A stretch of DNA of 64,000 nucleotides, taken from the IMG/VR virus record IMGVR_UViG_3300020048_000044, positions 32,001 to 96,000 of that record. The stretch is one strand, 5' to 3'. This stretch comes from a virus. The notes under the pieces are model-generated. The model was not told where the DNA came from, did no database searches, and saw only the letters and a list, made by a program, of their open reading frames with translations. Below are positions 38,917 to 56,186 of the stretch, piece after piece; position 1 is the stretch's first letter; each line of letters opens with the position of its first letter. Position numbers and translations under genes: made by a program.

Positions 38917-38939
38917 AAATAAATTAAAAATAAAACGCT

Positions 38940-39119: not shown

Positions 39120-39214
39120 AAAAAAATAAAAAATAAACCACAAATTATTAGGATTTGTGGTTTATTTGTTTTATCTTTGTAGTATCAAATTAATTAATTA
39201 AAACTTTGTCAATT

Positions 39215-39406
39215 ATGGGTATCAAAAAAGAGGACGTTGAATTAGTTGCTAAAAGCCTTAATTTCAAACCGACTGACGAACAAATAAAAGATATAATTTC
39301 ATTATATCCGTCTGCACAAGAAAATGACCCAACGGGAACGTGGGATTTAGTAGTAGAGAATTTGTTATATGAGTTAGAAGTTGAACAAACTAAAACCGTG
39401 AAATAA
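39215..39406 (+). CDS. hypothetical protein
   Basis: ATG after promoter. Confidence 0.7.
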   Translation: MGIKKEDVELVAKSLNFKPTDEQIKDIISLYPSAQENDPTGTWDLVVENLLYELEVEQTKTVK

Positions 39407-39591
39407 TGGATTATTTTGAACATTACGAATTACTTCCTATTGAAATAAAAACAATAATTGATGAATTTTGCAATGGTGAAAATTCATACGAAAATTGTGC
39501 TAACCTCGTAACTGCTTTAGAACTAGAGGGTTGGACTTGTGATTATGGATTAGATGCTGAACCGTATAATTTACATAAAATAATTGAATAA
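39406..39591 (+). CDS. hypothetical protein
   Basis: ORF track. Confidence 0.7.
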   Translation: MDYFEHYELLPIEIKTIIDEFCNGENSYENCANLVTALELEGWTCDYGLDAEPYNLHKIIE

Positions 39592-39650
39592 AAGTTTGGT
39601 ATTGTCAAATTAATTACTTATCTTTGTAGAACAATAATCAACTAGAAATT

Positions 39651-39929
39651 ATGGCAAAAATTGACGTAGGAACACAAGGGTTCAAAGGTGGTAAAATAAC
39701 ACACCAACACAAAGGATATGCTGAATTGCATACAGACATTAAAGGTTGTAACTTTGCCGTTATTATGGACGGTTACAAGGGACAAGGTAAAGACTATCAA
39801 CCACGTGACGAAGCGAATATAAAATTCAATTTCCCGAATGGTAAAAGTATTGAGTTTGAAACTATTGAAGCATTTTATATAGCTTTGACGGGTTGCAAAG
39901 AAGATGAAACAGGTTTTCCACCGTTTTAA
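39651..39929 (+). CDS. hypothetical protein
   Basis: ORF after promoter. Confidence 0.75.
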   Translation: MAKIDVGTQGFKGGKITHQHKGYAELHTDIKGCNFAVIMDGYKGQGKDYQPRDEANIKFNFPNGKSIEFETIEAFYIALTGCKEDETGFPPF

Positions 39930-40086
39930 AATATAGTTGATGTGTTAAATTGATAATTAGTCATTGGTGGTTCTTTGACTAGTGGAATAAGGTAAGATAG
40001 AAATATTTTACCTTTTTTTTGTGTTTTTATTTGGAATTGTAAAATATTATTCTTATCTTTGTCTTATCAATTTAAAACGAACTATT

Positions 40087-40320
40087 ATGTTAATATTACA
40101 CACATTTGAAAAATTAGGTTATACAGCTTTTATCGGCTCTAATGGTAATAAATTTATATTTAATATTCAACCTAGCGATGAACCAAAATGTTGTGGTGGT
40201 TATCCAAACTTAAATTATATTTGTAGAGTTAAAGGGTTGCTACTTGATGAAAGGAAAATATTAATAGATAAGGCTGAAAAAATAATGGGTAAAACTATTA
40301 AAGAAAATTTGGAATTGTAA
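40087..40320 (+). CDS. hypothetical protein
   Basis: ATG after promoter. Confidence 0.7.
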   Translation: MLILHTFEKLGYTAFIGSNGNKFIFNIQPSDEPKCCGGYPNLNYICRVKGLLLDERKILIDKAEKIMGKTIKENLEL

Positions 40321-40369
40321 AATATTTGTTTTATCTTTGTCAAACAATAATCAACTAAAACTTTATATT

Positions 40370-40834
40370 ATGCGTATTAAAAAAATAATCCTAACCAAAG
40401 AAGATATAAAAAATTTAATGCTAAACAAAACTATTAGTATTGAACGTGAAGATGTTTGGAATGTGCCAAAATCCAGTATTGTTTATGGTGTTGGTTGTAA
40501 TGGTATGTTTGATAAGGTTGATTATCGTTGGGTTTATGGTGATACTGACCAATATATTACAGATAAAAAAAATGTTGGTAGACGTGCCGAAGACTATCCA
40601 AATAACGAAATAAGTTCACAAAGTGGGTGTTTATGGTGGGATTTTAACAAACACTATTCACCATTTAATAAAGTAGGTGAAACTGTTATCAATGGCAAAA
40701 AAAATCCTATCAAATTTAAAATAGAAAACATAATCATTGATAAACTAACTGATGTTGAATGTATTGATAGTTATAAGCAAAAACGTAGGTATCACAAAAT
40801 AATATTTAAAATTGATATAAAAATAATTGAATAA
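40370..40834 (+). CDS. hypothetical protein
   Basis: ATG after promoter. Confidence 0.75.
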   Translation: MRIKKIILTKEDIKNLMLNKTISIEREDVWNVPKSSIVYGVGCNGMFDKVDYRWVYGDTDQYITDKKNVGRRAEDYPNNEISSQSGCLWWDFNKHYSPFNKVGETVINGKKNPIKFKIENIIIDKLTDVECIDSYKQKRRYHKIIFKIDIKIIE

Positions 40835-40899
40835 AAGTTTGGAATTGTCATTTATTTGTTTTATCTTTGTCAAACAATAATCATTTAAAACTTTATACA

Positions 40900-41169
40900 A
40901 TGGGAATAGTAACTGATATGTTAATGGCAAAAGACCAAAATCCAAAAAATCGTTTTATGATTGGGGATAATCTATATGAATTTGAAACGATGCAACCCGA
41001 AATTAAAGAGGGTGATATTTTCACTACTGAAATTAAAATGTTTGTTTTAACTGCTGATTGTATTGATGAAACTTTAAAGGGTGTTAAATTTATTGAAGAC
41101 TTTGGTCACGATATGATTTGCCCATATAAAAAAGCAATTAAATTAAGATTCATAAAAACAATAAAATAA
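40900..41169 (+). CDS. hypothetical protein
   Basis: ATG after promoter. Confidence 0.75.
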   Translation: MGIVTDMLMAKDQNPKNRFMIGDNLYEFETMQPEIKEGDIFTTEIKMFVLTADCIDETLKGVKFIEDFGHDMICPYKKAIKLRFIKTIK

Positions 41170-41228
41170 ATTTGGAATTGTCATTTATTATGTTTATCTT
41201 TGTCTTATTAATTTAAAACTTGTCAATT

Positions 41229-41609
41229 ATGGTATATGAAATAAGAACATACAATTTAATAGGCACAACACTTTATACATATAAAGAAATGCCTAATCTT
41301 ATTGAAGTTAAACGCAATGGAAATTTTATATTCGTTGATAAAGATACTGATGAAGTACCATTTAGACCAATGAATTGGAGTTATTCAACTGAAAAGCCTT
41401 TAGGTGCTATTAATAGTAGAGTGGAATTTTTACCATATATTGCCGATGTTACAGAAGACCTACCAAGTCATTGTAAATTTGAACCAAAAACATATAAGAA
41501 ATGTTTATTAATGGCTGAAACACATGGTAGTTGTTTACAATTTTACCATGAAGAAAGTAAAGAAGTTTTAAGAATAGCTTTAAATTCACATACATATAAA
41601 CCCGTTTAA
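41229..41609 (+). CDS. hypothetical protein
   Basis: ATG after promoter. Confidence 0.75.
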   Translation: MVYEIRTYNLIGTTLYTYKEMPNLIEVKRNGNFIFVDKDTDEVPFRPMNWSYSTEKPLGAINSRVEFLPYIADVTEDLPSHCKFEPKTYKKCLLMAETHGSCLQFYHEESKEVLRIALNSHTYKPV

Positions 41610-41610
41610 A

Positions 41611-41826
41611 ATGGACTATACAAAAGTAACACATACAATCGAGGGTTATTTAGTTAAGGACTTAAGATTTAAACCAGTTGATAATATCATTGTCGGGTTA
41701 TGTAAAGACCCTATACACCCGATTGATTTACATAATGGATTCGTGGCGATGCAATGGACAAGACAAGGCAAACCGTTAAGGATAAATAAAGGTAGAACAG
41801 ATTTAATATTAAACTTCAATGAATAA
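41611..41826 (+). CDS. hypothetical protein
   Basis: ORF track. Confidence 0.7.
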   Translation: MDYTKVTHTIEGYLVKDLRFKPVDNIIVGLCKDPIHPIDLHNGFVAMQWTRQGKPLRINKGRTDLILNFNE

Positions 41827-42001
41827 AGAAATAGAATTTTCTGATGAAATTGATTTAGCACCTATTGGTGTTATTTTATGGAAATCTACATTCTTTAAAC
41901 CCGTTAAAGGAATTTATTTGGATTTGGAAGAGGGTAGTGACAAACATCTCGATGCAATACTTGACGGAACACTTGAAAATTATTTAAAGTTTTTTGAATA
42001 A
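41819..42001 (+). CDS. hypothetical protein
   Basis: ORF track. Confidence 0.65.
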   Translation: MNKEIEFSDEIDLAPIGVILWKSTFFKPVKGIYLDLEEGSDKHLDAILDGTLENYLKFFE

Positions 42002-42060
42002 TTATTTGGTATTGTCATTTATTTATATTATCTTTGTCTTATCAAATTAAACTAAACTAT

Positions 42061-42504
42061 ATGAAAATAGATATTACACCAATTATCGAACTTGGCGAGG
42101 GAACAAACAGAATAGCAATTGATATGAGAAATATTAGTGGTTTATATGTTTTCAGACTTGCAAACGGAAAAGATTATACAACCCTATTCAGTCCTAAAGA
42201 ACTTGAAGAATTTCAACCAAGTAAGAACGTTTCTGAAATGATTAAAGAATGGGAAGACAATATCAAAAGAAGACACGAAACGTGTGTTAAATGTATTGAA
42301 ACTGGGTTACACCATACAAATACAACAATACATAAAGTAATGAAAAATATTTCATTGCCTAATGGACAAATAATAGAAATGCCAACGGGTGAAACAGAAA
42401 TAAGACCCGTAGTATTAAGAAAAGATTGGATTGATTCATATAAAAATGAAGCTAGAGAATTGGCTGAACAATTTGGTAAAATAAGTTTCATAAAAATTTG
42501 TTAA
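42061..42504 (+). CDS. hypothetical protein
   Basis: ATG after promoter. Confidence 0.75.
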   Translation: MKIDITPIIELGEGTNRIAIDMRNISGLYVFRLANGKDYTTLFSPKELEEFQPSKNVSEMIKEWEDNIKRRHETCVKCIETGLHHTNTTIHKVMKNISLPNGQIIEMPTGETEIRPVVLRKDWIDSYKNEARELAEQFGKISFIKIC

Positions 42505-42551
42505 TCTCAATGATTTGTATTATCTTTGTTAAACAATTAAAATAAACGATT

Positions 42552-42779
42552 ATGAGTGATAAAATAAGAATAACTGATTTTAATTTTGTGTTTAGTGGAT
42601 ATGGACATTATAAAGTAACGTATGTTAATCCATTAAATAGTAAATCATATTATTGCACAACTTCAAATATGCAATTAATTGATTTAACAAAAAATGCTGA
42701 ACACCCTAAAAGAATACATTTAGAACAGTTAAAAAAATTGTGTAAAAATAATTTTAAACAACTTGGTTACAAATGGTAA
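42552..42779 (+). CDS. hypothetical protein
   Basis: ORF after promoter. Confidence 0.75.
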   Translation: MSDKIRITDFNFVFSGYGHYKVTYVNPLNSKSYYCTTSNMQLIDLTKNAEHPKRIHLEQLKKLCKNNFKQLGYKW

Positions 42780-42850
42780 AATAAGTTGAATAAAATTTGT
42801 TAATCTCAATATAAATTCTTATCTTTGTCAAACAATTAAATTAAACGATT

Positions 42851-43036
42851 ATGGGTAAAGAAAAATTAACTATCAATATTAAAATAAGTGGTAGTGGAAC
42901 GCCAAATGAAGTAATTAAATCATTAGAGGGTTTAATCGAATCAATAAAAGAAACCAATAAGGGCAAAGATAAAATTGCTATTTTTGATGGTGCTGAATGG
43001 GAAGACGAAACTTTAATAACCGAAATAAATTGTTAG
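42851..43036 (+). CDS. hypothetical protein
   Basis: ORF after promoter. Confidence 0.7.
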   Translation: MGKEKLTINIKISGSGTPNEVIKSLEGLIESIKETNKGKDKIAIFDGAEWEDETLITEINC

Positions 43037-43190
43037 ATTATGGTAGACTATTTTAAAGAAAATAGAATTTCAGATACACATTCACAACCACTCGAATATA
43101 AAGACGGGAAACAAAAAAGGCGTGAACGTAGAGCCAAAAAACGCAAGGCAAAAGAATTAATGAATTACGTAATTAATAACTCTTAAACCT

Positions 43191-43406
43191 ATGGAAATTA
43201 AAATTATAAATAGGAAAAAAAATAAAAGTCTTTATTTTTGTGATTATAATCCTTTGTTAGACGAAGCTATTAATAATTTCAAATCAGCAAAAACCGTAAA
43301 GGTAATAAATGGTATTTGTTATATTAGTTTTGTTTCACTTGGTTATTTCACTGAAATTTTATCTAAAAATAATATAAGTTTCACAATAATAACAACTTTA
43401 AATTAA
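43191..43406 (+). CDS. hypothetical protein
   Basis: ORF track. Confidence 0.6.
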   Translation: MEIKIINRKKNKSLYFCDYNPLLDEAINNFKSAKTVKVINGICYISFVSLGYFTEILSKNNISFTIITTLN

Positions 43407-43412
43407 TAACTT

Positions 43413-43607
43413 ATGTATTCTGAAATATATTATAAACAAATGCAAAATTGGGCATTTACAAAAAATGGTGGTGAATATCCACAATATTCAATACACGGAT
43501 TGAGATATAGAAGTGAATATACATTAAAACAAGTATCACAAATGAAAATAGGAGATACGATTGTTGTTAATGGTTCGCAAATAAAACGTATAAAAGATAG
43601 AGAATAA
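43413..43607 (+). CDS. hypothetical protein
   Basis: ORF track. Confidence 0.65.
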   Translation: MYSEIYYKQMQNWAFTKNGGEYPQYSIHGLRYRSEYTLKQVSQMKIGDTIVVNGSQIKRIKDRE

Positions 43608-43643
43608 TTTGCTTTTCTTAATATAATTTCGTACCTTTGTATT

Positions 43644-43913
43644 ATGGAATTTATATTATTAGAAGTTAATTCACCAAGTTGGAATTATATATGGGATTTT
43701 GTTGAAAATCATCCAATAAATGACGGTATTGAATTACCAAAGTCTGCTTTAAATAATGGTTATCAATGGGAATATATGGGCAGTTATAAACAAGGTAATA
43801 ATGTTATTAGTAAAATAATACATAAATCACACCCGAAAACCCAAGAACTATACACTATCAATATTTCACACGAAATAACACAAGAACAAATAACTAAATC
43901 AATTAAAATATAA
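43644..43913 (+). CDS. leaderless hypothetical protein
   Basis: ATG 5 nt after TACCTTTG. Confidence 0.7.
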   Translation: MEFILLEVNSPSWNYIWDFVENHPINDGIELPKSALNNGYQWEYMGSYKQGNNVISKIIHKSHPKTQELYTINISHEITQEQITKSIKI

Positions 43914-43919
43914 AACACT

Positions 43920-44105
43920 ATGAAATTCTTAGGACTTTTTTCTTTTATTATCTTTATCCTTTGCCTAGTAGGTGAAGTGAAATGTTGCTACAAAGCATAT
44001 AATTGCAATTGGGAACCAATTGGTAAGGCTGAGGTAATTTACACGGCTTCAGCTTGTTGTGGTTTAGGTTCAATTGTCGGTTGGTTTAATATCGAAGATA
44101 AATAA
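43920..44105 (+). CDS. small membrane protein
   Basis: hydrophobic; CNWEPIGKAEVIY. Confidence 0.7.
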   Translation: MKFLGLFSFIIFILCLVGEVKCCYKAYNCNWEPIGKAEVIYTASACCGLGSIVGWFNIEDK

Positions 44106-44166
44106 AAATAATTGAAAATAAATTTGGTAGTGTCATTTATTATTACTACCTTTGTATTGTTAAAAT

Positions 44167-44271
44167 AATTAACCCAAAGTAACGGATACCAAACCGCCAT
44201 TCGCCACTCGTTGCACGTATGCAAAACTCGGCACTCAAGGCATTATAAATGGAACGTGAAATGGGTTAATT
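44167..44271 (+). ncRNA. stem-enclosed small RNA candidate
   Basis: AATTAACCCA/TGGGTTAATT closing stem just after promoter 44147; C-rich interior. Confidence 0.4.
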
Positions 44272-44278
44272 TTAAAGA

Positions 44279-44352
44279 AGCTTATTAGTTCAATTGGTAG
44301 AACGCTAGAGCCGAAACTCTGGATGTTACGGGTTCGAATCCCGTATAAGTTT
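44279..44352 (+). tRNA. tRNA with non-canonical 8-nt anticodon loop (GCCGAAAC); identity uncertain
   Basis: AGCTTAT/ATAAGTT acceptor, GTTC-AATTGGTA-GAAC D-arm, ACGGG-TTCGAAT-CCCGT T-arm. Confidence 0.8.
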
Positions 44353-44398
44353 CAACAAATGTTTTTTCATTGCATTTGTTATTCTGTATTTTAATGTT

Positions 44399-44431
44399 AA
44401 AAACCCCATCTAGCTAATGGGGTTTTTTTTA
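44399..44431 (+). terminator. intrinsic terminator
   Basis: AAAACCCCAT/ATGGGGTTTT stem plus T-run. Confidence 0.85.
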
Positions 44432-44596
44432 TTGCCCTATGTACACAAATGTGTATATGCACCTCGCATTTTAGGTCGTGGCTGATAGTTTGTCTATCTC
44501 ACGGGAGAAAGTGTCTTAGAACGCATTAAAATAAGTCAGTGATATATGTTTGAGGTGGTGGAAACATACGGACATAAAAAAACCCCTATTAAGGGG

Positions 44597-44890
44597 TTAA
44601 AATTCTTTAACAAGTGTATAATCTTTATGTGTTTTAAAACGCTCACTCCATTCTCTAGGTTCGTCTAGTATGGTCATACCACAAATACTTTTCATATCCT
44701 CAATAGTATAAGATATTTCTAAACCAAAACGATTGAAGTAATGTGTTGAAAATAAAACGGGAATCATACCAACACCATAAACATACTTTTGTAAATGAAA
44801 TAAACGTAAATGTGTAGCACCCAATTTTTTCGCTTCTAAATCATAATTAGATTTAGTTTCATTTTCTAACAATAATTTTCTAGTTGCCAT
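44597..44890 (-). CDS. hypothetical protein
   Basis: ORF track. Confidence 0.7.
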   Translation of the reverse strand: MATRKLLLENETKSNYDLEAKKLGATHLRLFHLQKYVYGVGMIPVLFSTHYFNRFGLEISYTIEDMKSICGMTILDEPREWSERFKTHKDYTLVKEF

Positions 44891-44900
44891 ATATTAAAAA

Positions 44901-45068
44901 TTAATTACGTGTATAAATTAATCCATCAAATTTGCATTTAAGACGTTTTTTAATTGAACCGTCTTTTTTCAAATAATCGGTTGCTTCAAAGTCTTTGTAA
45001 TGGGTTGCACCCTCGCCAAATTTAATTTCGCTTTGTGTTGGTTTGCGTGAATATTCTAATTTTTTCAT
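44901..45068 (-). CDS. small hypothetical protein (55 aa)
   Basis: MKKLEYSRKPTQSEIKFGEGATHY..; leader AAAAAACCTTATT as in neighbouring genes. Confidence 0.7.
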   Translation of the reverse strand: MKKLEYSRKPTQSEIKFGEGATHYKDFEATDYLKKDGSIKKRLKCKFDGLIYTRN

Positions 45069-45198
45069 AATAAGGTTTTTTAATTAACTTTTAATAGTGC
45101 ATTTAATTTGCCCGTTTTCGTTACGAATATTAATATTTGAAGTTGGTATATTGTTTTTTAATTTACCAATATTTTGTAAATGACAAACTAATATATTA

Positions 45199-45705
45199 GT
45201 TATATCCAATTTAAGAAACGATTATACATTCCTCATCGTAATCATTAGTTGTAAACTCAATACACGATGATTTTTTAATCATTTCTATTGCTTTTGCTAT
45301 ATTTTTTGAGTGTTCAATAGCCATTTTCTTTTTTTCTAATTCAATTCCAGAATAATAATCTTTCCACGCTTTCCTGTCTTTTGAACACTCATAGCAGAAT
45401 AAATCATTATAATCATCTTCATTCCCTCTTTTTGATTCATAATGTTCGACAATTAAATAATATCCTTTTATTTCTTTCTTACACGTTTTACAAATCATAG
45501 AACCGCACTTGCACGATTCTGAATTTGTTATTTGAGTTGATGTTCCGTATTTTCCCATAATTAAATAAAAACTGGCTATAACCAGTGGTATAGTTAATTG
45601 CCGTGTTTGTACTAATTTGAAGCGTTACCACCCGCTTGTAATTCTGTGTATTTTGATATGGAAGTAGCCCGCATTAGGCAACTAACCATACCACCAACGT
45701 TATTT
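45199..45705 (-). mobile_element. attC-like cassette carrying ORF 45211-45558
   Basis: hairpin element 45574-45705; flanking boxes GTTATAGCC and GGATATAAC (8/9 complementary) on - strand. Confidence 0.6.
45211..45558 (-). CDS. cassette-borne Cys-rich protein
   Basis: CKCG..CKTC..CYEC. Confidence 0.7.
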   Translation of the reverse strand: MGKYGTSTQITNSESCKCGSMICKTCKKEIKGYYLIVEHYESKRGNEDDYNDLFCYECSKDRKAWKDYYSGIELEKKKMAIEHSKNIAKAIEMIKKSSCIEFTTNDYDEECIIVS

Positions 45706-45750
45706 CACTTTGTTCTAATTCTATTGTTATTGATTCCTTCATATAGGTTT

Positions 45751-45960
45751 TTATTTAGTTAGTTTAGTATATGCAAAGATATTGAATGATAATATAGAAA
45801 CACAAATACCAATATAAAGCATTGGGATTGCGTGTAAAGGTGTTTCTTTTTGAAACGATACAATGAGAGCAGCTAATAAGATTAAACCACTCAGACCACT
45901 TGAAACGGCTAAATAAACCATAGCTACAAATTCAAAGATGTTTTTGATTACTTTTTTCAT
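45751..45960 (-). CDS. small membrane protein
   Basis: after reverse promoter; two TM segments. Confidence 0.7.
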   Translation of the reverse strand: MKKVIKNIFEFVAMVYLAVSSGLSGLILLAALIVSFQKETPLHAIPMLYIGICVSILSFNIFAYTKLTK

Positions 45961-46179
45961 ATCAGTTTGTTTTTAGTTGATTAATTGATAAGGCAAAGAT
46001 AGATATAATATTTTACAATTCCAAACTTTTTATTAAAATAATTTATTTTATTTTTAAATTGGTTGAATATCAATGTTTTAAAAAATAAATGAAAAAAAGT
46101 TGCCCAGGAATTTGGTAATTACAAAAACATTTTCTATCTTTGCCCTATCAATTTAATTAACCAACTAAAAAACCTTATT

Positions 46180-46998
46180 ATGAAAACATTAATTAACGAA
46201 ACAGTATTAGCAAATTTTGAAACAACAACAAAAGAAGTATTAGCTAAAAAATTAAATGTATCAGTAAGAAGTATTGTAGCTACATTTTCATCACTAAAAA
46301 GACGTAAATTAATACCAACAAATAAACATTTATTAAGTAGTTTAACTATTGAAACTCCAAAAATTGAAATTAAAGCAAAAGAAAAATTTCAAAATGTTAA
46401 AGGTGAAAAAAAACAAGTTGCTAGAGATTTAATGGTTAAATCAATTGTTCAAAGTGAAATTTCAAAAGGAACAATTTTAACACTGCCTTTTATACATTGT
46501 AAAATTGAACAACAATTGATTAACATTGTAGGTAAAAAATACAACTTTTTAGGATGCGAAAACGACCCAATTGTTTATAATCAAATGCTTATGACAATTG
46601 CACAAAATAACCTACCAATTAGCACCCATAAAGGCAATATAAAAGATAAAATAAATATTGCAAATGAAAATGAATACTCACATTTAATATTAGATTATTG
46701 CGGTCAACTAGGAACAACACACGAAGAGATTAAAACAGCAATTGAAAATAATATTGTTCAAGTTGGGGGCGTTATTGCAATAACATTAAATAAAAGAATA
46801 ACTCCAAATACAGAATTTATTTATGAATTAATGGAAAAATTAAATCCACGAACAAAAGAAGACGAGGATACAAGGTGTGAACACGCTTTAAGAACTTTTA
46901 TAAACCGTATCGGTGGGTTAAATTATGCTATTGAATCAGTTTTAAATTATCACGATACTACAAGTATGATTTTAATGATAGTTAGACGAATAAATTAA
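46180..46998 (+). CDS. N-terminal HTH plus possible SAM-methyltransferase-like domain
   Basis: LAKKLNVSVRSIV; FLGCEND; LILDYCG. Confidence 0.5.
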   Translation: MKTLINETVLANFETTTKEVLAKKLNVSVRSIVATFSSLKRRKLIPTNKHLLSSLTIETPKIEIKAKEKFQNVKGEKKQVARDLMVKSIVQSEISKGTILTLPFIHCKIEQQLINIVGKKYNFLGCENDPIVYNQMLMTIAQNNLPISTHKGNIKDKINIANENEYSHLILDYCGQLGTTHEEIKTAIENNIVQVGGVIAITLNKRITPNTEFIYELMEKLNPRTKEDEDTRCEHALRTFINRIGGLNYAIESVLNYHDTTSMILMIVRRIN

Positions 46999-47092
46999 TT
47001 TTAAAAATAAATGACAATTTATTTGGAATTGTCATTTATATTTTCTATCTTTGCCTTATCAATTTAAAACAAACCAACTAAAAAACCTTATT

Positions 47093-47260
47093 ATGATTGC
47101 TTTAATTAATACCTCAATCAACTACAAAGCAGAAGCCGAAAAAATTTCAGCTACATTCAATTATTATCAATGGTTAATAGATGCCAAAAAAGAATGCCGA
47201 ATAGATTTAACCCTAATCGAATTGTGGAAAAAAATAACCGTTAATTTACCACAAAAATAA
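47093..47260 (+). CDS. hypothetical protein
   Basis: ATG after promoter leader. Confidence 0.6.
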   Translation: MIALINTSINYKAEAEKISATFNYYQWLIDAKKECRIDLTLIELWKKITVNLPQK

Positions 47261-47314
47261 TTTGAAAAAAAACCACAATTTATTTGGAATTGTGGTTTTT
47301 TTGTTTTATCTTTG

Positions 47315-47388
47315 TTGTGTTGATAATGACAACGGGCTGAGCTGAAAACTTAGAAGAGTAGACTCGCTAGTACCTTATATTTTTTTTA
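47315..47388 (+). ncRNA. small RNA family copy A
   Basis: promoter 47307, no ORF, three hairpins, ends TACCTTATATTTTTTTT. Confidence 0.6.
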
Positions 47389-47498
47389 TTTAGATAAATT
47401 ATAAATAACAAAATAATTGAAAATAAATTTGGATATATCAAATTTTTGTTTTATCTTTGTCTTATCAATTTAACATTAACCAACTAAAAAACCTTATT

Positions 47499-48056
47499 AT
47501 GAAAAACTTAATCCAAACAAACCAAAAAATTGAAGTTGCTAACTATCCATACGGTTATACATTAAAAACAATTTTATTTGATACTATGGAGTTTAATGCA
47601 AAAAAAGGTTATAGACATATAACACAAACAATAAACCCAAAAAATGGTAGGTTAAACGCTGAAAAAAAATCTACTTATGCACCTTTAAAAGTTAGATTTT
47701 TTGATGAAAACGGACATATTAAGGTTATTGTTTTTGATTTTAACGGTGGCAAAGCTATTAACAAAGCAATGAATTTTATTAATGAAAACTTTGAACTTTT
47801 CACAACTAAAGAAATAGAGTATTTTTATTATTTAGCCTTCTCAATGCTTAAATGTGATGTTATGGCGTTGATTCAATACGCTGGTATGAAGTTTGACGAT
47901 TTAAAACCAATCTATAATGAAATTTCAAACAAAATGATTGAGGGAATAAAAAACCCTACATTAAATAATTTTAATGTTAATTTAGATGTTGAAAAAATTG
48001 ATAGTTTGAGAGATGTAAATTATCAACCTTTTAAAATTGTTGAATACAATTATTAA
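47499..48056 (+). CDS. hypothetical protein
   Basis: YPYG..L.T...G.R...QT.NPK.G. Confidence 0.75.
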   Translation: MKNLIQTNQKIEVANYPYGYTLKTILFDTMEFNAKKGYRHITQTINPKNGRLNAEKKSTYAPLKVRFFDENGHIKVIVFDFNGGKAINKAMNFINENFELFTTKEIEYFYYLAFSMLKCDVMALIQYAGMKFDDLKPIYNEISNKMIEGIKNPTLNNFNVNLDVEKIDSLRDVNYQPFKIVEYNY

Positions 48057-48175
48057 AATAATAATAAATAAAAAAACCACAATTCTAAATTGTGGTTTTT
48101 TTATTTAATCATATACACAATTGTGTATATCATCTAATAAAATTCAATAATTAGATACTTAAAAGATATTTATTT

Positions 48176-48250
48176 TTATTCTGACATAAAAAAAAGTCCC
48201 GTAGGACTTTTTATTCTGATATAAAAAAAAATCCCGTAGGACTTTTTTAT
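48176..48250 (-). terminator. tandemly duplicated terminator (~37-bp unit)
   Basis: TTATTCTGAyATAAAAAAAArTCCCGTAGGACTTTT twice. Confidence 0.75.
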
Positions 48251-48480
48251 TTAATCATTTTGTTTAATTCCAGTTTAATTCTTTTTGCAGTTTCACCACG
48301 CCACGAACTAGCATTCGATAAAAAATACAAAATAATACTTTTGCCTGTATCTAAACCGTATTTATCATTTACATTTGATAGCGTTTGCATAGCTTGTAAA
48401 TAAGGAACAGCCCCAAAATTTACTTTTTTCCAATCTGTTTTTATTTCATTTGCAATTACATTTAATTTTCTCTTTTCCAT
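48247..48480 (-). CDS. conserved phage hypothetical protein
   Basis: W..V..GAVPYL.AM...YG.D...YFLSNA..WRGE. Confidence 0.75.
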   Translation of the reverse strand: MEKRKLNVIANEIKTDWKKVNFGAVPYLQAMQTLSNVNDKYGLDTGKSIILYFLSNASSWRGETAKRIKLELNKMIK

Positions 48481-48699
48481 ATTAATTTTTTTAGTTGGTT
48501 TATAATAAATTGACACCACAAAGATAAAACAAATTTTTGATAAAAACAAATTTTTTTATCTTTTTTTATTATGGGTAAAATATTTGTTTATTTATAATGT
48601 TTATAAATAAGAAATTATTTAAAATAATTGTTTGTATATTCAAATTTTATTTCTATATTTGCATATCAATTTATTATAAACCAACTAAAATTTTAAATT

Positions 48700-48981
48700 A
48701 TGAGCTTTTTTAAAAAAATAGATTTTATAAACCAACAACTAAAAGTTAACAGTTTAACTTTAATTGCAGATTTTTTTCTTACTAATGTAAAAACTTGCAA
48801 AGTGGTTGAAATAGACGTAAATACAGAAAATAACACTAATACGTGGCTAATTAAATTAGAAGCAATTGGATTAGTTAAAAACGTTTCAATTGTTAATTTT
48901 GAATTATCAGAAATAGACGAAGCAAACAAATTTTTAATTCAAAATTATATTAATAAAACACTAGCTAATTATTTAGAATAA
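48700..48981 (+). CDS. hypothetical protein
   Basis: ORF after promoter. Confidence 0.6.
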   Translation: MSFFKKIDFINQQLKVNSLTLIADFFLTNVKTCKVVEIDVNTENNTNTWLIKLEAIGLVKNVSIVNFELSEIDEANKFLIQNYINKTLANYLE

Positions 48982-49081
48982 TTCTAAATAACAATTATTT
49001 TAAAATAATTGTTTGTATATCCAAAAATTAATTGTATCTTTGCCTTATCAAATTAACACAAACCAACTAAAAATCTTTATT

Positions 49082-49630
49082 ATGAAAAATGTAACTGTAA
49101 AGGAATTAACTCAAATTTTATTAGAAACTAAGTTAATCAAAGGAATGAATATGTTTGCTTCTGTTTTGCAAATCACCGAACCAAAAACAACCGTAAAAGA
49201 TAGAAACAACAAAGACAATAAAAACCCATACGTGAAAATACAAAAATTTTCAAAGGTTTCTATCTTATTAAATGCTGATTATGTAACAGCCGTAATTAAT
49301 CAATTAGAACGAGAAAACAAAGAACAAACAGAATATAAACAAGGCAAAAATACAATGCCTTTAGTATTCGGTGAAAATAACCAATTTTTAGGTTTTTACG
49401 GTGGTAGTCCTGTTTTACAATATCGTCCTAATGATAATGTAAAATCAAAAAGCAAATATTTAGCTGATGGAAAATTAATCGACAAAGCAAAAATTGAGGG
49501 ATTTTTACCACTCGTAAAAAATGCCGAAAATCAAGGAACGGACAGAGAAATTTTTTGGAGAAAACTATACCTAAAAAATGTAAAAAAATTGACATTCAAC
49601 GGACAAACTTACAAAGTAATCGGAGAATAA
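49082..49630 (+). CDS. hypothetical protein
   Basis: ATG after promoter leader. Confidence 0.75.
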   Translation: MKNVTVKELTQILLETKLIKGMNMFASVLQITEPKTTVKDRNNKDNKNPYVKIQKFSKVSILLNADYVTAVINQLERENKEQTEYKQGKNTMPLVFGENNQFLGFYGGSPVLQYRPNDNVKSKSKYLADGKLIDKAKIEGFLPLVKNAENQGTDREIFWRKLYLKNVKKLTFNGQTYKVIGE

Positions 49631-49842
49631 AAATACACTCCGAACAACTACAAAATGAAAAAGGGATTAACTCCCTTTTTTTGTGTAATTTTTCTTTATA
49701 CATAATCATTCTAAATAACATAATTGTTAATAACTTTATACTATATTATTTGCTATTAAAATAAATTTTACACGACACAATATAAAGCGTTTTAAGCAAT
49801 GTTATGTATAAATGATATACGGACACAACCAAAAAAAGATAG

Positions 49843-49940: not shown

Positions 49941-50130
49941 AAATTTTTTCCAGAATTTTTTTATAACATATTTGGACCTTGTTCGCTAAAATTTTTTCTA
50001 GGATTTTTTTATATATCATATTTGGACCTTGTTACCCAAAATTTTTTCCTAGGATTTTTTCACATATTATATTAGGGGGGTCTTATATCGAAAAAAAATT
50101 TTTTAGAAATTTTTTTGATATATATTTGGT
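49941..50130. repeat. four ~50-bp tandem iteron-like repeats
   Basis: AAATTTTTTC..AG.ATTTTTT...CATATTTGGACCTTGTT units at 49941, 49989, 50039, ~50096. Confidence 0.75.
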
Positions 50131-50159
50131 AGTCTCAAAATTTATTAATACCTTTGCAT

Positions 50160-50531
50160 ATGAAAAAAATTCTAGTATTATTATTTATGTTATTAAGTGG
50201 GATATGTTTGTCACAGGTTCCAGAGTTTAGGCCCAATCAATTTAGGTTATTGGATAATTCATCGGATGCTAGCATTTTGGTATATCGTCCAGTGAAGCAG
50301 ATTAAGATAACGTTTAAGACGATGATAAATGATAATGTTGTTGATAACATATTTGAGGATTTATCTGAGGGTATTGATTTGGGTGAGGCAGATTATTTAG
50401 GTATTGGTAAGTATGATATAAGGTTAAAGTATTATATGAATTCGAGGTTACGTTTATTGGGTAGGTTAGTAGTACGGAGGTTGGATATGGGTGATGCGAG
50501 TTATTATATTGGATTTGAGTATAAATTTTAA
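50160..50531 (+). CDS. leaderless exported protein, possible outer-membrane beta-barrel
   Basis: signal peptide; C-terminus YYIGFEYKF. Confidence 0.55.
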   Translation: MKKILVLLFMLLSGICLSQVPEFRPNQFRLLDNSSDASILVYRPVKQIKITFKTMINDNVVDNIFEDLSEGIDLGEADYLGIGKYDIRLKYYMNSRLRLLGRLVVRRLDMGDASYYIGFEYKF

Positions 50532-50534
50532 AAT

Positions 50535-51191
50535 ATGTATATGGAGTTTAAAAAGTTTAGTGTTAGGGTTATCAATGAAGTTGGCAGTCCTATTAGTATT
50601 GGGATGAACATTTCGTTAATTCATAGGGTCCCTAGAATCTTGAGTGATATTGGGGTTATTGAGACTTATGAGAAGGATTATTCTGGATTTAGTTATGGTG
50701 TAAGAAACTTAGGTACGAATAAGATAAGCATCATGCATATTTCTAGTATTCGTCCTATAGGATTAGTATTAACGTCTGAGGATGAAGTTTGTGTTGGTGA
50801 TATATTTTATCATGATGGAGAGCTTCACAAGTGTATTGAAATTAGTGGTGGTGTTATTGCTGAGAATGGTATAAGGTATCATAGTCAACCATATTCTAAG
50901 GTTGTTGCGTTATCGAATGAGATTGGTTATAGTTATAATCGTGGTCCGATTCACGACCACAATCATAGTTGGAGGGATGGGGTTTATTTAGAGGATTTTA
51001 ATGATGGGGTTGCACGTAAGTTATATGAGATGCATTCTGTTTATGTATTGGTTAGTGAGCAGTGTTTGGAGCATGGGTTAGATTGTTCATGCAAGAGTGG
51101 TTTTGTTATCAAGCCTATATTACATGATGGTAAGATAATCATGGACACATATGACATTACTGGTAATGAATCGTATTATTTTCACAATTAA
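50535..51191 (+). CDS. hypothetical protein
   Basis: ORF track. Confidence 0.7.
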   Translation: MYMEFKKFSVRVINEVGSPISIGMNISLIHRVPRILSDIGVIETYEKDYSGFSYGVRNLGTNKISIMHISSIRPIGLVLTSEDEVCVGDIFYHDGELHKCIEISGGVIAENGIRYHSQPYSKVVALSNEIGYSYNRGPIHDHNHSWRDGVYLEDFNDGVARKLYEMHSVYVLVSEQCLEHGLDCSCKSGFVIKPILHDGKIIMDTYDITGNESYYFHN

Positions 51192-51203
51192 AAAATCGTA
51201 TTT

Positions 51204-52469
51204 ATGAAGAAGAAGAGTTTAAAGGTTAAGGATTTGGTTGAGCAAGAGAAGCCAGAGTGGGAATTGATATCTGAGAGCAAGAATGATAATATTGATTTAT
51301 TATTTGAGATATATAAACAGGACAAGGCTAAGGCTAGGATAATTTATCATCAGCGGAAGTTACATAATCAGAATGCATATCTTCAGACACGTATTGTATT
51401 TTTCAAGTGGTCCAATGGGAATTTCAAGTTTGCTAAGTTTGTTGAGAGTGTTGGCATTGGTAAGACTGGAATAATATATAAGTCTAAGAAGTTGGAGGAG
51501 GCTATATTATATAAGGATAAGAAGTTTTATCATATTACTAGCAATAGGATATATCAGTTAACGTATAATAGTCTTAATAATTTCGTAAATACTTATTCAT
51601 TTGATGGGAATCGTAAGGGTAATTATGTTTATGATTATTTGGTAAAGGATTTTGGGTGGTTGCGTAATTTAGCTGAATCTAGGTATGGTGGTAATATATC
51701 ATTTAACACAATAATTTCTAAGAAGTTATTTAATGAGAAGGCTATTTTCAAGTATATTTATGGTTTTTCGTATCCAGTTTCAAAGATATTATCGGTTAAT
51801 GGATATTCTACGAAGCCTCAGTTGTACAAGTTAAAGAATTCGGTTATTAACATTGAGAATTTAAAGGCTGAGATGTTAAATAGCACGTTATTTAATGATA
51901 CATTAAACATGGCCAATACACTTGGTCGTAAGATAAATTGTTCATGGAGCTTGAAGCGATTAAAGCAAGAGCATGATAAGTGGGCTAAGGAGATTATTGA
52001 GGTTATTCTTGAGTTTGAGCCATTAGAGGAATTAAAGATTTCAAAGGTTTATAGGGATTTTGCTGAGTTTAGTGGATATGAGTTATTATTAACGAATCAT
52101 GATTTGATATCTGAGGGCAAGGTAATGTCTCATTGTGTTGGAACTTATTCTGGGAAGGTTAATTCTGGAAATTGTGCGATATTTCGTGTGGAGGGTCACA
52201 CATTAGAGGTAGGTTTTTGCAAACAATATAGCACAGATGGTCAGAGATTATCGGTATTATATGGTAGCAAATTAAATAAGATGTTACAGATGGTTCAGTG
52301 CATGGGTTTTGATAATGTATCTGCTAATAATGTATTAAAGGATAAGATTAATGATTGTATTCATAAGTTTAATGAGAAGGGGATAGAGCAGTATGATTCT
52401 GATAGTAATTTTAGGCATACTACGGATGATTTTTTTAATAATGCGTTAGTTGAAGAGTTACCATTTTAA
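51204..52469 (+). CDS. PcfJ-like domain protein
   Basis: L..EGKVMSHCVGTY....IF...TLEV. Confidence 0.8.
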   Translation: MKKKSLKVKDLVEQEKPEWELISESKNDNIDLLFEIYKQDKAKARIIYHQRKLHNQNAYLQTRIVFFKWSNGNFKFAKFVESVGIGKTGIIYKSKKLEEAILYKDKKFYHITSNRIYQLTYNSLNNFVNTYSFDGNRKGNYVYDYLVKDFGWLRNLAESRYGGNISFNTIISKKLFNEKAIFKYIYGFSYPVSKILSVNGYSTKPQLYKLKNSVINIENLKAEMLNSTLFNDTLNMANTLGRKINCSWSLKRLKQEHDKWAKEIIEVILEFEPLEELKISKVYRDFAEFSGYELLLTNHDLISEGKVMSHCVGTYSGKVNSGNCAIFRVEGHTLEVGFCKQYSTDGQRLSVLYGSKLNKMLQMVQCMGFDNVSANNVLKDKINDCIHKFNEKGIEQYDSDSNFRHTTDDFFNNALVEELPF

Positions 52470-52471
52470 AT

Positions 52472-52499
52472 AAAAAAGAGGGAATTACCCTCTTTTTTT
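52472..52499. terminator. bidirectional terminator
   Basis: AAAAAAGAGGG/CCCTCTTTTTT between convergent genes. Confidence 0.85.
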
Positions 52500-53618
52500 A
52501 TTAGCATATTTTGCGGCTAGTTTTTCTTGTCTATCTAGAACGTCTTGTTTTTCTTTATCGGATATTGAGAGTTCTTGTTTAGGTGTATTGTTAGCTATAT
52601 CTTTTCTTTCTTTTTTAGCGGCTATTGTTGGTGACATTTTTTCTTTGGATATATTAGGTCCTTTTTTATCTAGATATGTTGTTTTATCTGTTGTATTAAC
52701 GTAGTTACTTTGTTTAATATATTTAACTTCGGCTAAAGAATTAAGTTTTTCTTTAATCAAGCTTTTCATATTTTCGTTTATTGATACGATTTCATCGTAT
52801 GCTTTATTTTTGAATGAATCTAGTTGGTCCATGAAAGGTGTTCTACGAAGTGTTTTGAACACTATATTTTCTAAGCTAAATTCTCCACCACTTTCTAGGC
52901 CAGCGTTTCTCATTTGTTTTATTTTATGTTTAAGGTGTGTTGCCATTTTGAGAACTAGTTTATAGTCATTATTGACGTAAGCTTTTTTAATGCTTCTAAG
53001 TTGGTTAACGAATAGCTTAGCTTTACGTTTAACGGCATCTTTATCTAGCTTAAACTTTTCATGTTTTGGAATTATCAACCATTTATCGTTAAGTATTGAG
53101 TATATTGCTGATGAAATATGCTTTGCGTGTTTATCTTGGATATACATTTCCACTGGGTATCCGAATATTTTGATATCATGGTCGATGCTCCAAGTTGTTT
53201 TTTTCTCACGGAAGAAGTCTTGAATCATTTGGGGGTCACCATCGATTAGTTTAAAGTCTATTATAATATGGAGGTCGATATCAGAGAACTTAGACCAATT
53301 GAAGTTAGCAAGGGAGCCAGTGAAGATAATATCTTTAATTTGGACTTCAGAAGGAAGTTCAAGGTCGGTATAGAAATCGGTAGCTATTTTAAGTAGTTTA
53401 TCTTTAACCTTAGGGTTAAGGACACCCTCTATCCATATTTGTGGATTAAGGGTATCTTTAATTTTAAAGCTATCGAGTACATCTTTAGGTATTATGATTT
53501 CTTTAGTGATATTATCATCGAGTGAATTATCAATTTCATCAATTTCGTCCAATACTCTTTTTGGTTGAATTGGTTGATATGATTCATTAAGTTCTATTTT
53601 ATTAATTAAAAATTTCAT
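52485..53618 (-). CDS. Pol-beta superfamily nucleotidyltransferase
   Basis: TGSLANFNWSKFSDIDLH (GS-x-DxD). Confidence 0.85.
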   Translation of the reverse strand: MKFLINKIELNESYQPIQPKRVLDEIDEIDNSLDDNITKEIIIPKDVLDSFKIKDTLNPQIWIEGVLNPKVKDKLLKIATDFYTDLELPSEVQIKDIIFTGSLANFNWSKFSDIDLHIIIDFKLIDGDPQMIQDFFREKKTTWSIDHDIKIFGYPVEMYIQDKHAKHISSAIYSILNDKWLIIPKHEKFKLDKDAVKRKAKLFVNQLRSIKKAYVNNDYKLVLKMATHLKHKIKQMRNAGLESGGEFSLENIVFKTLRRTPFMDQLDSFKNKAYDEIVSINENMKSLIKEKLNSLAEVKYIKQSNYVNTTDKTTYLDKKGPNISKEKMSPTIAAKKERKDIANNTPKQELSISDKEKQDVLDRQEKLAAKYANKKRG

Positions 53619-53692
53619 TTGGTATAAAGTTTTTTATATAAATATTTGGAATTGTCGATTAGTTTTCATACCTTTGTATAAAATAATAGATT

Positions 53693-54010
53693 ATGAGTGA
53701 AATAACAAAATTATACCGATATGTACGAGGTAGTCGTGAATTCAATACCATTTATTTAGATGAATATAGTATTGTAAAGGAGACACCTAAAGGTTATCGA
53801 ATTAGTGTTCACACTAAAGGTGATAGGTTAGTATTAAAAGAGGGTCGAAAGCGATTTGCACATGAGACACCAGAATTGGCGTTGGAGAGTTTTATTTTAA
53901 GAACTCAAAAATGTCTTAAGATACAGCAAGGGTTAGCTGATTTAACCAAAGGTTTTTTACACACAGCAATTAAATTAAAAGAAACATGGGACTTACAAGT
54001 GAAGAAATAA
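53693..54010 (+). CDS. hypothetical protein
   Basis: ORF after promoter; VKETPKGY. Confidence 0.75.
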   Translation: MSEITKLYRYVRGSREFNTIYLDEYSIVKETPKGYRISVHTKGDRLVLKEGRKRFAHETPELALESFILRTQKCLKIQQGLADLTKGFLHTAIKLKETWDLQVKK

Positions 54011-54399
54011 AAGAAGGTAATGAATTAATTGTTAGGTTCTTAGGGTGGGAATATCAGCCAAGCACCAGTAATAATTTTCCCAGTGGCACTTGGTATGATG
54101 GTCATGTTGGTCATTGTGCTGATAATGGTTTAAGGTGGCATAAGTCATGGGATTGGGTTTTTCCAGTAATAACTAAAATCAATGGATTAGGCAAGGAATA
54201 TAGCTTTGCAATTTTTAAGACTTACGTATCGTTGACTGTAGAGAAGGGTGGTAAGTTTTACAAGGATTTTAGTTATGCTTATTCGGAGTATATAACATCT
54301 GAGCAGACTGCATTGGAGGCGGCATTTAAGATGGTTGTCAGATATATTAAATGGCATAATGAAAATATTTTAATAAAAGTTTTGGATTTGTCAAAATAA
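53986..54399 (+). CDS. hypothetical protein
   Basis: N.LI..FLG...WHKSWDW. Confidence 0.7.
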   Translation: MGLTSEEIKEGNELIVRFLGWEYQPSTSNNFPSGTWYDGHVGHCADNGLRWHKSWDWVFPVITKINGLGKEYSFAIFKTYVSLTVEKGGKFYKDFSYAYSEYITSEQTALEAAFKMVVRYIKWHNENILIKVLDLSK

Positions 54400-54444
54400 A
54401 TTCATACCTTTGTAATTCAATATTATTAACTTAAAAACAAACAA

Positions 54445-54984
54445 ATGAAAAAATTATTCTTTTTTGCGGTGGCTTGCGTTATAGCCTTATCAAGTTGCGA
54501 CAATCATAATGGTCGTGTTTATGTAAATGACAATAACACAGGTGATGTTATTGTAACCCCAGAGGTAGCTAACCTCGGTGATGATTTAAACTTACAAGCT
54601 TTGGGTGAAATGGTTAAGTCCAGTCAGAATGCTGAAGACTTAGAGAACAAATTAAATCAGCCAAATTCAATCAACAATTTAGACTTAGATGGAAATGGTA
54701 GTGTTGATTACATCAATGTAACCGAATATGGCCAAGATGCGTCTAGAGGTTTTTCTTTTACGGTAGATTTAGGCAATGGTCAGAAGCAAGAGATTGCAAC
54801 GATTGAAATGCAGAAGGGTCAAGGTGACCAAGCAATAATGAACATTAATGGCAACCAGAATTTATATGGTAATAATGGCTATTATTCTTCAAGTTATTTA
54901 ATGCGTGATTTATTAATATGGCATTATTTATATCAGCCGCATCCATATTATGCAAGTAGTAAACCTATACGCAAAGTATTTTGA
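54445..54984 (+). CDS. lipoprotein with EF-hand-like loop
   Basis: LSSC lipobox; DLDGNGSVDY. Confidence 0.75.
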   Translation: MKKLFFFAVACVIALSSCDNHNGRVYVNDNNTGDVIVTPEVANLGDDLNLQALGEMVKSSQNAEDLENKLNQPNSINNLDLDGNGSVDYINVTEYGQDASRGFSFTVDLGNGQKQEIATIEMQKGQGDQAIMNINGNQNLYGNNGYYSSSYLMRDLLIWHYLYQPHPYYASSKPIRKVF

Positions 54985-54994
54985 TTACTTAAAA

Positions 54995-55567
54995 ATGTAT
55001 GACATATATTGTGCTGTAGATTTGGATAAGGGTGAGTTTGCATTTTCAAGCATCAATAATGATTGGACTGATGAACAATGGTTTAACTTCCTTGGTAACG
55101 AAAGATTTAGTGATGTTCGTGTTGCTGTTGCTGAGTTCAAGGGTCTTAATCCAGTGGAGATTGTTTTCTTATCATTTCTAAATGAGAACAGATTTGATTG
55201 TACCGCACCTAAATGGGAGGATAATTTAACTGCTGATGGAATTTGGAGAGAGATTGAAGAAATATGTAATACAGCCATTTCAGCTGATTATTTGAAAGAA
55301 GGTGGTGTTATTGAAGATGTTATCACCCAAGGTACTGCCATAGCTTTAGAACTCATTAAATCGGCTACAGAAGCTATTAATAACGAAGCGGAAAGTGAAG
55401 CATATGATAATGGGGATATGTATGAAGAAACAACTGAAACTACAACGACTACTGAGTATGTTGATATTGTAGAGGAGCCATATTACGGGTATGATTATTG
55501 GGACCCATATTACGACCCATATTATGTATCACCGTTATGGATTGTTCCAGTAGTATTATTATTTTAA
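54995..55567 (+). CDS. hypothetical acidic protein with Tyr/Pro-rich tail
   Basis: ATG at 54995. Confidence 0.65.
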   Translation: MYDIYCAVDLDKGEFAFSSINNDWTDEQWFNFLGNERFSDVRVAVAEFKGLNPVEIVFLSFLNENRFDCTAPKWEDNLTADGIWREIEEICNTAISADYLKEGGVIEDVITQGTAIALELIKSATEAINNEAESEAYDNGDMYEETTETTTTTEYVDIVEEPYYGYDYWDPYYDPYYVSPLWIVPVVLLF

Positions 55568-55580
55568 AACAAAAGACCGC

Positions 55581-56186
55581 TTATTTAGGCGGTCTTTTTT
55601 TTGGTTTAGTTGTAGTAATTTTAGGGGTTGTAGCTTTGGTTGTTGTTTTTTTCTTTTTACGTTTCTTTTTATATTTTTTAACAACAAATTTACGTGTTCC
55701 AGTTTCTTTGATTTTAATGCAATATGGTTCTTCTTTTAACAAAGTTATATCAAGCATCCATTCGTATTTAGAACGTTCTCTATGGAGCTCAAAAGAGGCT
55801 AAAACGTGGTCATTTATATCATCGATATCCCATTTATTAATCTTAGCTAATTGGTGGAAGCAAACTGATTGTTTTCCGATAGCTATTGCACGGCCAAGAT
55901 GTTTAACTTGGTGGCAAGTTGGGCAAAGGGAAATAAGACCTACTAGCTTTTGTATATGGTTAACATCGTCATATTCCCATATTTCATGACATTCGACATC
56001 GTGTGGGTATCCTTGTTGTTTACCAGTTTCACCACATATTTCACACTTATGGCCAGCGGCTTCGTATGATATATGTCTAATCTTATCCCATTCTATTGGT
56101 TTTACGGTTGTTCTAACGTTTGAGAAATGGCAAGTGCTTGGGACTAGTTCTACAGTTAGTTTAGGTTTTTTAGACTTCAGTGACAT
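55581..56186 (-). CDS. HNH endonuclease-like protein
   Basis: CEICG...ECHE.W...LCPTCHQVKH. Confidence 0.8.
   Translation of the reverse strand: MSLKSKKPKLTVELVPSTCHFSNVRTTVKPIEWDKIRHISYEAAGHKCEICGETGKQQGYPHDVECHEIWEYDDVNHIQKLVGLISLCPTCHQVKHLGRAIAIGKQSVCFHQLAKINKWDIDDINDHVLASFELHRERSKYEWMLDITLLKEEPYCIKIKETGTRKFVVKKYKKKRKKKKTTTKATTPKITTTKPKKRPPK

Follow-up and report, generated by a model that had tools for sequence, protein, structure and literature searches.

An uncatalogued family of small non-coding RNA genes in phages, mostly of Bacteroidota, with DUF932 and GP88 genes as recurrent neighbours

What does a phage make from an early-type promoter that is followed by no gene? The question is raised by position 47307 of the window, by which we mean the whole stretch of 64,000 nucleotides analysed here, corresponding to bases 32001-96000 of a 121.7-kb IMG/VR virus record. 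As the initial annotation had noticed, the promoter at this position leads into no credible open reading frame: the sole overlapping frame, which has 27 codons and begins with TTG, spans the promoter itself, and the gene that comes next is driven by its own promoter at 47452. To our knowledge, few small RNAs encoded by phages have been described and most of these are poorly understood, with almost nothing known for Bacteroidota phages, and the Bacteroidota themselves are, as far as we know, without Hfq and ProQ. The unit that begins here, copy A, is laid out as follows.

47283-47314, plus strand: copy A promoter, of Bacteroidota type, with the -33 element TTTG at 47283 and the -7 box TATCTTTG at 47307-47314
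47307-47388, plus strand: copy A, from the promoter -7 box through the T-run
47319-47388, plus strand: copy A RNA of about 70 nt, its predicted start placed from promoter geometry
47319-47333, plus strand: hairpin P1, GTTG/CAAC
47334-47336, plus strand: GGG
47337-47353, plus strand: hairpin P2, CTGAG/CTTAG
47354-47357, plus strand: AAGA
47358-47366, plus strand: box, GTAGACTCG
47367-47380, plus strand: tail, reading TACCTTATAT at 47371-47380 and followed by eight T, the T-run ending at 47387

The -33 region of this promoter and the upstream gene's terminator hairpin (47266-47302) overlap. Both the GTTG/CAAC and the CTGAG/CTTAG hairpins had been proposed before, and both are present; a third proposed hairpin, GAGT-AG-ACTC, would need an impossible loop of 2 nt, and at most GAG-UAGA-CUC pairs, an arrangement that is unconserved across the family described below. 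Copy A departs from the family consensus where its box meets its tail (CTCG CTAG in place of CTCC AACC). The two further copies that the initial annotation had placed at 31.2 and 37.3 kb also carry the shared motifs; their strand had been left unstated, and both lie on the minus strand, oriented against their neighbouring genes.

31260-31177, minus strand: copy B
31260-31253, minus strand: copy B promoter -7 box
31248-31233, minus strand: copy B P1, GTCA/TGAC
31228-31210, minus strand: copy B P2, CAATATT/AATATTG
31209-31197, minus strand: GGAG-GTATA-CTCC
31196-31183, minus strand: copy B tail, AACCTACCTTATAT, followed by a T-run to 31177
37379-37301, minus strand: copy C
37379-37372, minus strand: copy C promoter -7 box
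37367-37357, minus strand: copy C P1, GTCA/TGAC
37352-37335, minus strand: copy C P2, CGACTA/TAGACG with one mismatch, followed by GAAA
37330-37322, minus strand: copy C box, GTATACTCC
37321-37308, minus strand: copy C tail, ACCTTACCTTATAT, followed by a T-run to 37301

All three copies thus have a Bacteroidota-type early promoter of their own, no open reading frame, a 5' hairpin, a variable second hairpin, GTA(G/T)ACTC, and TACCTTATAT with a T-run. The exact TACCTTATAT sequence occurs three times in the window, and three times in the entire 121.7-kb record, each time inside copy A, B or C, which are the sole units of this build there. Their promoters are of the TATCTTTG class, as are those of the surrounding block of small early-type genes. 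The earlier view of stand-alone, promoter-driven small-RNA genes that encode no protein is supported. When each sequence was folded singly and compared with its shuffles, copy B was more stable (z -2.85), while copies A (z 0.5) and C (z -0.5) were not. The case for a structured RNA is carried by comparison across the family and not by the three single sequences alone.

Two exact-pattern scans of IMG/VR identified about 45 phage contigs that hold 56 distinct members; in view of this manner of collection, the conservation of the parts that the patterns specify looks inflated. These contigs measure 4-340 kb, and as many as four copies were seen on one contig within the DNA retrieved; the family as a whole is spread from 12-kb fragments to giant phages of 360 kb. 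Among isolate genomes, blastn added one member in Tenacibaculum phage Larrie (genus Cbastvirus), where it lies in an unannotated gap and is opposed to all annotated genes. Across the family, the stretch after the promoter, of 8-35 nt, usually forms the small hairpin P1 (absent in some members); next come A(C/A)GGG, P2, four purines (GAGA, AAGA or GAGG), GUA(G/U)ACUCC and the tail NNCCUACCUUAUA, which is rich in C and U. The units of this phage close with a U-run. The conserved part therefore consists of GGG, a hairpin, RAGA-GUAGACUCC and the C/U-rich tail. In a wider sample drawn from DUF932 loci the tail is more variable (UACCCU, UACACC, CACGCC) and RAGA-GUAGACUCC is constant.

The 5' half of the RNA is so variable that MAFFT could not align it, and conservation of the hairpin was measured with custom scripts instead of a covariance model. 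P2 has a mean contiguous stem of 5.0 pairs, against 3.25 +/- 0.17 in shuffles, and its 5' arm takes 45 different forms among 54 sequences: the sequence of P2 is nearly free, and its pairing is maintained by compensatory changes. Among stem pairs, G-U combinations (56) exceed A-C combinations (31), an excess which indicates that the promoter strand is the one under selection. The conserved scaffold with a variable insert that had been proposed from copy A was accordingly right in recognising conserved and variable parts; the insert is a compensated, self-complementary hairpin and not guide-like. Copies B and C and a few relatives are without GGG before P2, and most of them, copy B included, have GGAG after it instead (GAAA in copy C), which could pair with CUCC. 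For the box itself, about 90 sequences were inspected by eye for GGG/CUCC, GGG with either CCU of the tail, GAG-UAGA-CUC and GUAG/CUAC, and no clean covariation was seen among these candidates; the single possible case is ACGUG with CACGU in one locus (L182), which may be due to chance. A minigene or leader peptide starting from the ATG of the ATGAC motif was rejected, as frames and lengths vary among the copies and their relatives.

How far does this family extend beyond phages, and has it been described? An exact-pattern scan of 185,579 prokaryotic species genomes gave 101 pattern matches, none of them a family member, and a less strict search of 401 Flavobacteriaceae genomes gave matches at chance level only, the two best of those inspected being coding sequence. 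The 3 kb around copy A had no blastn match in 50,697 phage records. Against Rfam 15, the window gave only the tRNA at 44279 at gathering score, a permissive scan of copy A gave chance matches (E 0.3-8), the loci of five relatives gave nothing at E <= 1, and 33 further loci gave only tRNAs at gathering score; the initial annotation had likewise recognised no named family. Neither ARAGORN nor the Rfam tRNA model called a tRNA or tmRNA at any of the three copies, and at gathering score neither the window nor the 33 related loci showed a hammerhead ribozyme immediately before the RNA. A full-text literature search found no paper on such an RNA. Together, these results show that the three units, each with its own promoter, are paralogous genes of an uncatalogued, phage-only family of small non-coding RNAs that occurs mostly in Bacteroidota phages.

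The simplest dismissal of such a family, anticipated in the initial annotation, would be that the shared motifs are no more than a terminator duplicated along with promoter cassettes. Many members have no T-run after the tail and continue into a hairpin and TCTAAATAAG, into iterons or into G-rich sequence, and the box is retained in them; in three members (L151, L165 and L174) it also stands behind promoters of TATAAT type. Since the box is kept without a T-run and behind another type of promoter, it is more than a terminator copied together with a promoter cassette. Nor does the unit have the form of an intrinsic, Rho-independent terminator, a candidate that we rejected: no G+C-rich hairpin abuts the T-run, the terminator scan detects only that of the upstream gene, and in the RNA, CUCC and the U-run are 13-15 unpaired bases apart.

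We also rejected a CRISPR guide or RNA anti-CRISPR. The variable part is paired with itself and, at up to 3 mismatches, matches nothing else in the 121-kb phage record; the box had no repeat-array-like match in the 401 Flavobacteriaceae genomes, a result that covers those genomes only. Pairing with 16S rRNA, or mimicry of the anti-Shine-Dalgarno sequence, fared no better: the duplex energy of the box against the whole 16S of two Flavobacteriaceae was about that of a shuffled box (p ~0.25-0.3), a value of p ~0.02 being obtained only when the comparison was limited post hoc to the last 75 nt.

Turning to the transcriptional setting, promoters of the Bacteroidota type (TTTG, about 19 nt, TAnnTTTG) number 52 in the window against 7.7 expected. 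They fall into two classes by region, with the -7 box TACCTTTG at 4100-24100 and 50100-57200 and TATCTTTG at 30300-49100, the latter block containing all three RNA genes. Between 30000 and 49100 the leaders of early mRNAs are stereotyped, consisting of TATCTTTG, YCTTATCAATTTAA, A(A/T)CAACTAAAA and then (CC)TTATTATG (examples at 46135-46182, 47046-47095, 47452-47501 and 49035-49084); four leaders near copy A read AACCAACTAAAAAACCTTATTATG and show a same-sense likeness to the RNA tail CCAACCTACCTTATAT. The promoters of L151, L165 and L174 are built from a repeated GTAACC, about 17 nt and CGTATAAT and are not of the Bacteroidota type; these phages carry the same RNA family, and still carry GP88 and DUF932. 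The early genes of the window include a glucosaminidase-type endolysin gene (37526-38074, plus strand), divergent from copy C, and a tRNA gene (44279-44353, plus strand) that scores 52.6 bits with the Rfam tRNA model and whose anticodon loop ARAGORN could not read ('tRNA-???').

Clustering of the open reading frames around 62 sites identified two recurrent neighbours, DUF932 and GP88, one or other of which lies within 3.5 kb of the RNA at 28 of these sites, mostly 110-700 bp away. In the window, copy B is situated between a gene of each kind.

30386-30994, plus strand: GP88-family gene (PF17338, E 6e-20), a short divergent member of the family, convergent with copy B
31433-32317, plus strand: DUF932 gene (PF06067, TIGR03299; E 2.5e-18), divergent from copy B

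Seen from the DUF932 side, the box lies 75-380 bp beyond the DUF932 stop codon, on the opposite strand, in about 24 of 29 loci (at least 46% identity), and several DUF932 loci also have a copy of the RNA about 200-300 bp upstream. The complete trio of GP88, RNA and DUF932 is found in the window and in loci L028 and L160, and the linkage persists in phages with TATAAT promoters, to GP88 in L151 and to DUF932 in L174. Copies A and C are adjacent to neither gene, and the proteins encoded around them show no likeness to the two families. From the GP88 side, the RNA is present at three of the best 80 loci, all three among the closest relatives of the GP88 gene in the window. Because GP88 at large is unlinked to the RNA, part of the adjacency between RNA and gene may be gene order inherited within one phage group.

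As to the proteins, a PDB sequence search with DUF932 and GP88 gave no solved relative, a model of DUF932 (pLDDT 81) gave no informative structural match, and the literature on DUF932, YfjQ and YafZ yielded no functional study. The GP88 family has a nearly invariant C-x6-C-x3-C motif, which is not the canonical CX3CX2C of radical-SAM enzymes, a superfamily marked by a three-cysteine cluster site close to the N-terminus of a partial TIM barrel. When a GP88 model (pLDDT 80) was compared with known structures, radical-SAM enzymes made up 13 of the first 14 VIA-align matches, which were weak (Z 5.2-6.1); the structural matches include lipoyl synthase, QueE and spore photoproduct lyase. Foldseek gave nothing clear, and GP88 matched no Pfam radical-SAM model. 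We treat this weak resemblance of a predicted structure as a lead, not a classification. Complex prediction for DUF932 with GP88 offered no support for a complex, and the neighbouring proteins matched no PADLOC model.

We tentatively favour, at a little short of an even chance, a reading in which the RNA serves not as a guide but as partner or substrate in a phage RNA-protein module whose conserved protein recognises the box. The multiple copies with early promoters, the invariance of the 3' part next to hairpins of free sequence, the confinement to phages and the two linked genes together point to the box and tail as the surface that is recognised. Under this scheme, several gene copies would be transcribed by host RNA polymerase into abundant RNA early in infection; the working surface would be formed by the invariant box and tail, with the hairpins as scaffold only; a conserved phage protein, most likely DUF932, would read the box in a sequence-specific manner; and GP88, which is weakly radical-SAM-like, might act with DUF932 or on the RNA. 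Y RNA genes offer a precedent for such an arrangement, in that they adjoin the Ro (rsr) gene in bacteria and some phages and their products act as an RNA-protein complex. The likeness lies in a small structured RNA gene, sometimes multicopy, beside a conserved protein gene; sequence and structure are unlike, neither DUF932 nor GP88 is a TROVE protein, and here the association is known from gene adjacency.

We consider rather unlikely the more specific proposal that the RNA is a dedicated subunit or substrate of a module formed by DUF932 and a radical-SAM-like GP88, which would bind the GUAGACUCC box, and perhaps modify it chemically, at the start of infection. If it were true, it would provide the first function for two families that are widespread in phages and, in the case of DUF932, plasmids. 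Annotation pipelines meet DUF932 and GP88 constantly and cannot name them, and both would gain a function if the RNA were the partner of either. The RNA family itself is widespread, multicopy, strongly conserved and linked to both, and the existence of a cultured carrier, Tenacibaculum phage Larrie, puts bench work within reach.

A conserved unpaired stretch would also be expected of a trans-acting antisense RNA, for which the box and tail would be the seed on host or phage mRNAs and the several copies would serve dosage. The RNAs FopS/GibS of Bacteroides thetaiotaomicron are of this kind, about 65-70 nt long, with a canonical Bacteroidota promoter and many paralogous copies, some antisense to neighbours; FopS has a conserved unpaired R1 seed at its 5' end, variable parts and a terminator hairpin, and forms a complex with the protein RbpB (PMC11697453). 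The phage RNA resembles them in size, promoter type, multicopy layout and the possession of one conserved unpaired stretch beside variable parts (PMC11697453). FopS, however, is a host RNA with a 5' seed and a normal terminator hairpin, whereas the phage RNA is found in phages only, has a 5' hairpin, a conserved 3' part and no terminator hairpin at its U-run, and shows no sequence likeness to FopS; Rfam, which should include a FopS model (PMC11697453), gave no such match in our scans. Complements of the box do occur downstream of the RNA in L173 (GGTTGGAGTCTAC, in a hairpin loop) and L144 (GGAGTCTAC), and the former suggests that the box engages in RNA-RNA pairing at least in cis. Against a role in trans, no convincing box-complementary site exists elsewhere in the 121-kb phage record, a search of five Flavobacteriaceae genomes for conserved targets, with up to 3 mismatches allowed in 19 nt, found none and BLAST gave only chance-level matches (short seeds cannot be judged statistically), and the roughly 25 conserved nucleotides exceed a typical seed, so that we regard an antisense function as doubtful. 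The unit might, on the other hand, act at the level of DNA or of transcription: a cassette of promoter plus stop that would insulate or end convergent transcription and offer a point for recombination in the shuffling of genes, with the transcript a by-product. This is how it would resemble the PeSL elements of T4-type phages, in which a terminator stem-loop is followed by an early promoter and which are repeated among small early genes and can bracket genes (PMC2839356, PMC4122927). The copies here are likewise short, repeated, promoter-containing elements in a setting of small early genes; they frequently point towards a gene's 3' end and bracket one gene in L010, L141 and L175, and, by our reading, the sequence immediately beyond the T-run often completes a dyad with it and the tail. 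The ordinary promoters of this phage are indeed fused to terminator hairpins in the PeSL manner (PMC4122927), and it is these, not the RNA unit, that match the PeSL layout. The RNA unit has the reverse order, with a promoter, about 70 transcribed bases and a T-run, on which ground we rejected its identification as a PeSL cassette. Moreover, PeSLs are defined within closely related genomes, whereas the 25-nt box hardly varies among widely differing phages or between two promoter types, and is kept without a T-run; no G+C-rich hairpin stands at the T-run; and compensation in P2 and the G-U bias indicate selection on the RNA strand. A role as transcriptional punctuation is therefore, in our assessment, unlikely.

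The initial annotation had raised a decoy as well as an antisense role, and nothing that we found points to either. As a decoy or mimic, the RNA would soak up a host factor early in infection, be it a defence nuclease, a CRISPR protein or a protein that binds mRNA leaders. RNA anti-CRISPRs, or solitary repeat units, are small promoter-driven phage RNAs with a conserved hairpin and flank, defined by their resemblance to a CRISPR repeat of the host. The early promoter, the multiple copies and the phage-only occurrence would all suit a decoy role; the hairpin GGAG-GUAUA-CUCC of copy B with its tail has what we take to be the general look of a CRISPR repeat, and between the tail CCAACCUACCUUAUAU and the stereotyped leaders of adjacent early mRNAs, AACCAACUAAAAAACCUUAUUAUG, there is a likeness in the same sense. 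That last likeness, however, is seen in this one phage; the 401 Flavobacteriaceae genomes and the pattern scan of 185,579 species hold no array or repeat-like match to the box, which sets it apart from RNA anti-CRISPRs; nothing similar appears in five genomes of host type; and the lack of PADLOC matches among neighbouring proteins also counts against a decoy, which we judge quite improbable. More improbable still is a cis-acting signal for replication or transcription, whether an origin primer or R-loop RNA, for which the T4 origins oriE, oriF and oriG would be the model, or an antitermination RNA like put of phage HK022, which is likewise a structured RNA directly after a promoter. Here, too, about 70 nt of structured RNA begins immediately after a promoter; in L150, L155 and L163 the RNA gene precedes an array of 4-6 iterons, and copy A lies 2.4 kb from a region of repeats and a C-tract. 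But copies A, B and C have no iterons, and the iterons elsewhere adjoin a terminase gene and may be packaging sites; the tail is C-rich and not G-rich, which disfavours a stable R-loop; and copies B and C face oncoming genes, with no operon to antiterminate. The favoured reading remains that of an RNA whose box is recognised by a conserved phage protein.

Three further sequence features recur around the RNA genes. A 14-mer, AATTGTTAATAACT, has three exact copies, the sole ones in the 121-kb record, at approximately 31297-31310 (minus strand), 37416-37429 (minus strand) and 49721-49734 (plus strand). Two of them precede the promoters of RNA copies B and C at a short distance (about 40-50 nt in the case of B), the third adjoins the repeat and C-tract region near 49.8 kb, and the word is also found near RNA genes in L010, L166, L173 and loci of the L144 type. 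In L150, L155 and L163, 4-6 direct repeats (CATATTAAAC or GTACTATGTTTAAG) are situated between the RNA gene and the gene for the terminase large subunit, and may be packaging or origin sites. Finally, a motif resembling the T4 late promoter (TATAAATA, or TCTAAATAAG preceded by TTAGAATCAG) comes directly after the RNA gene and in the same direction at 47389-47410 of the window and in L142, L148, L151, L155, L163, L165 and L174, regardless of the type of early promoter.
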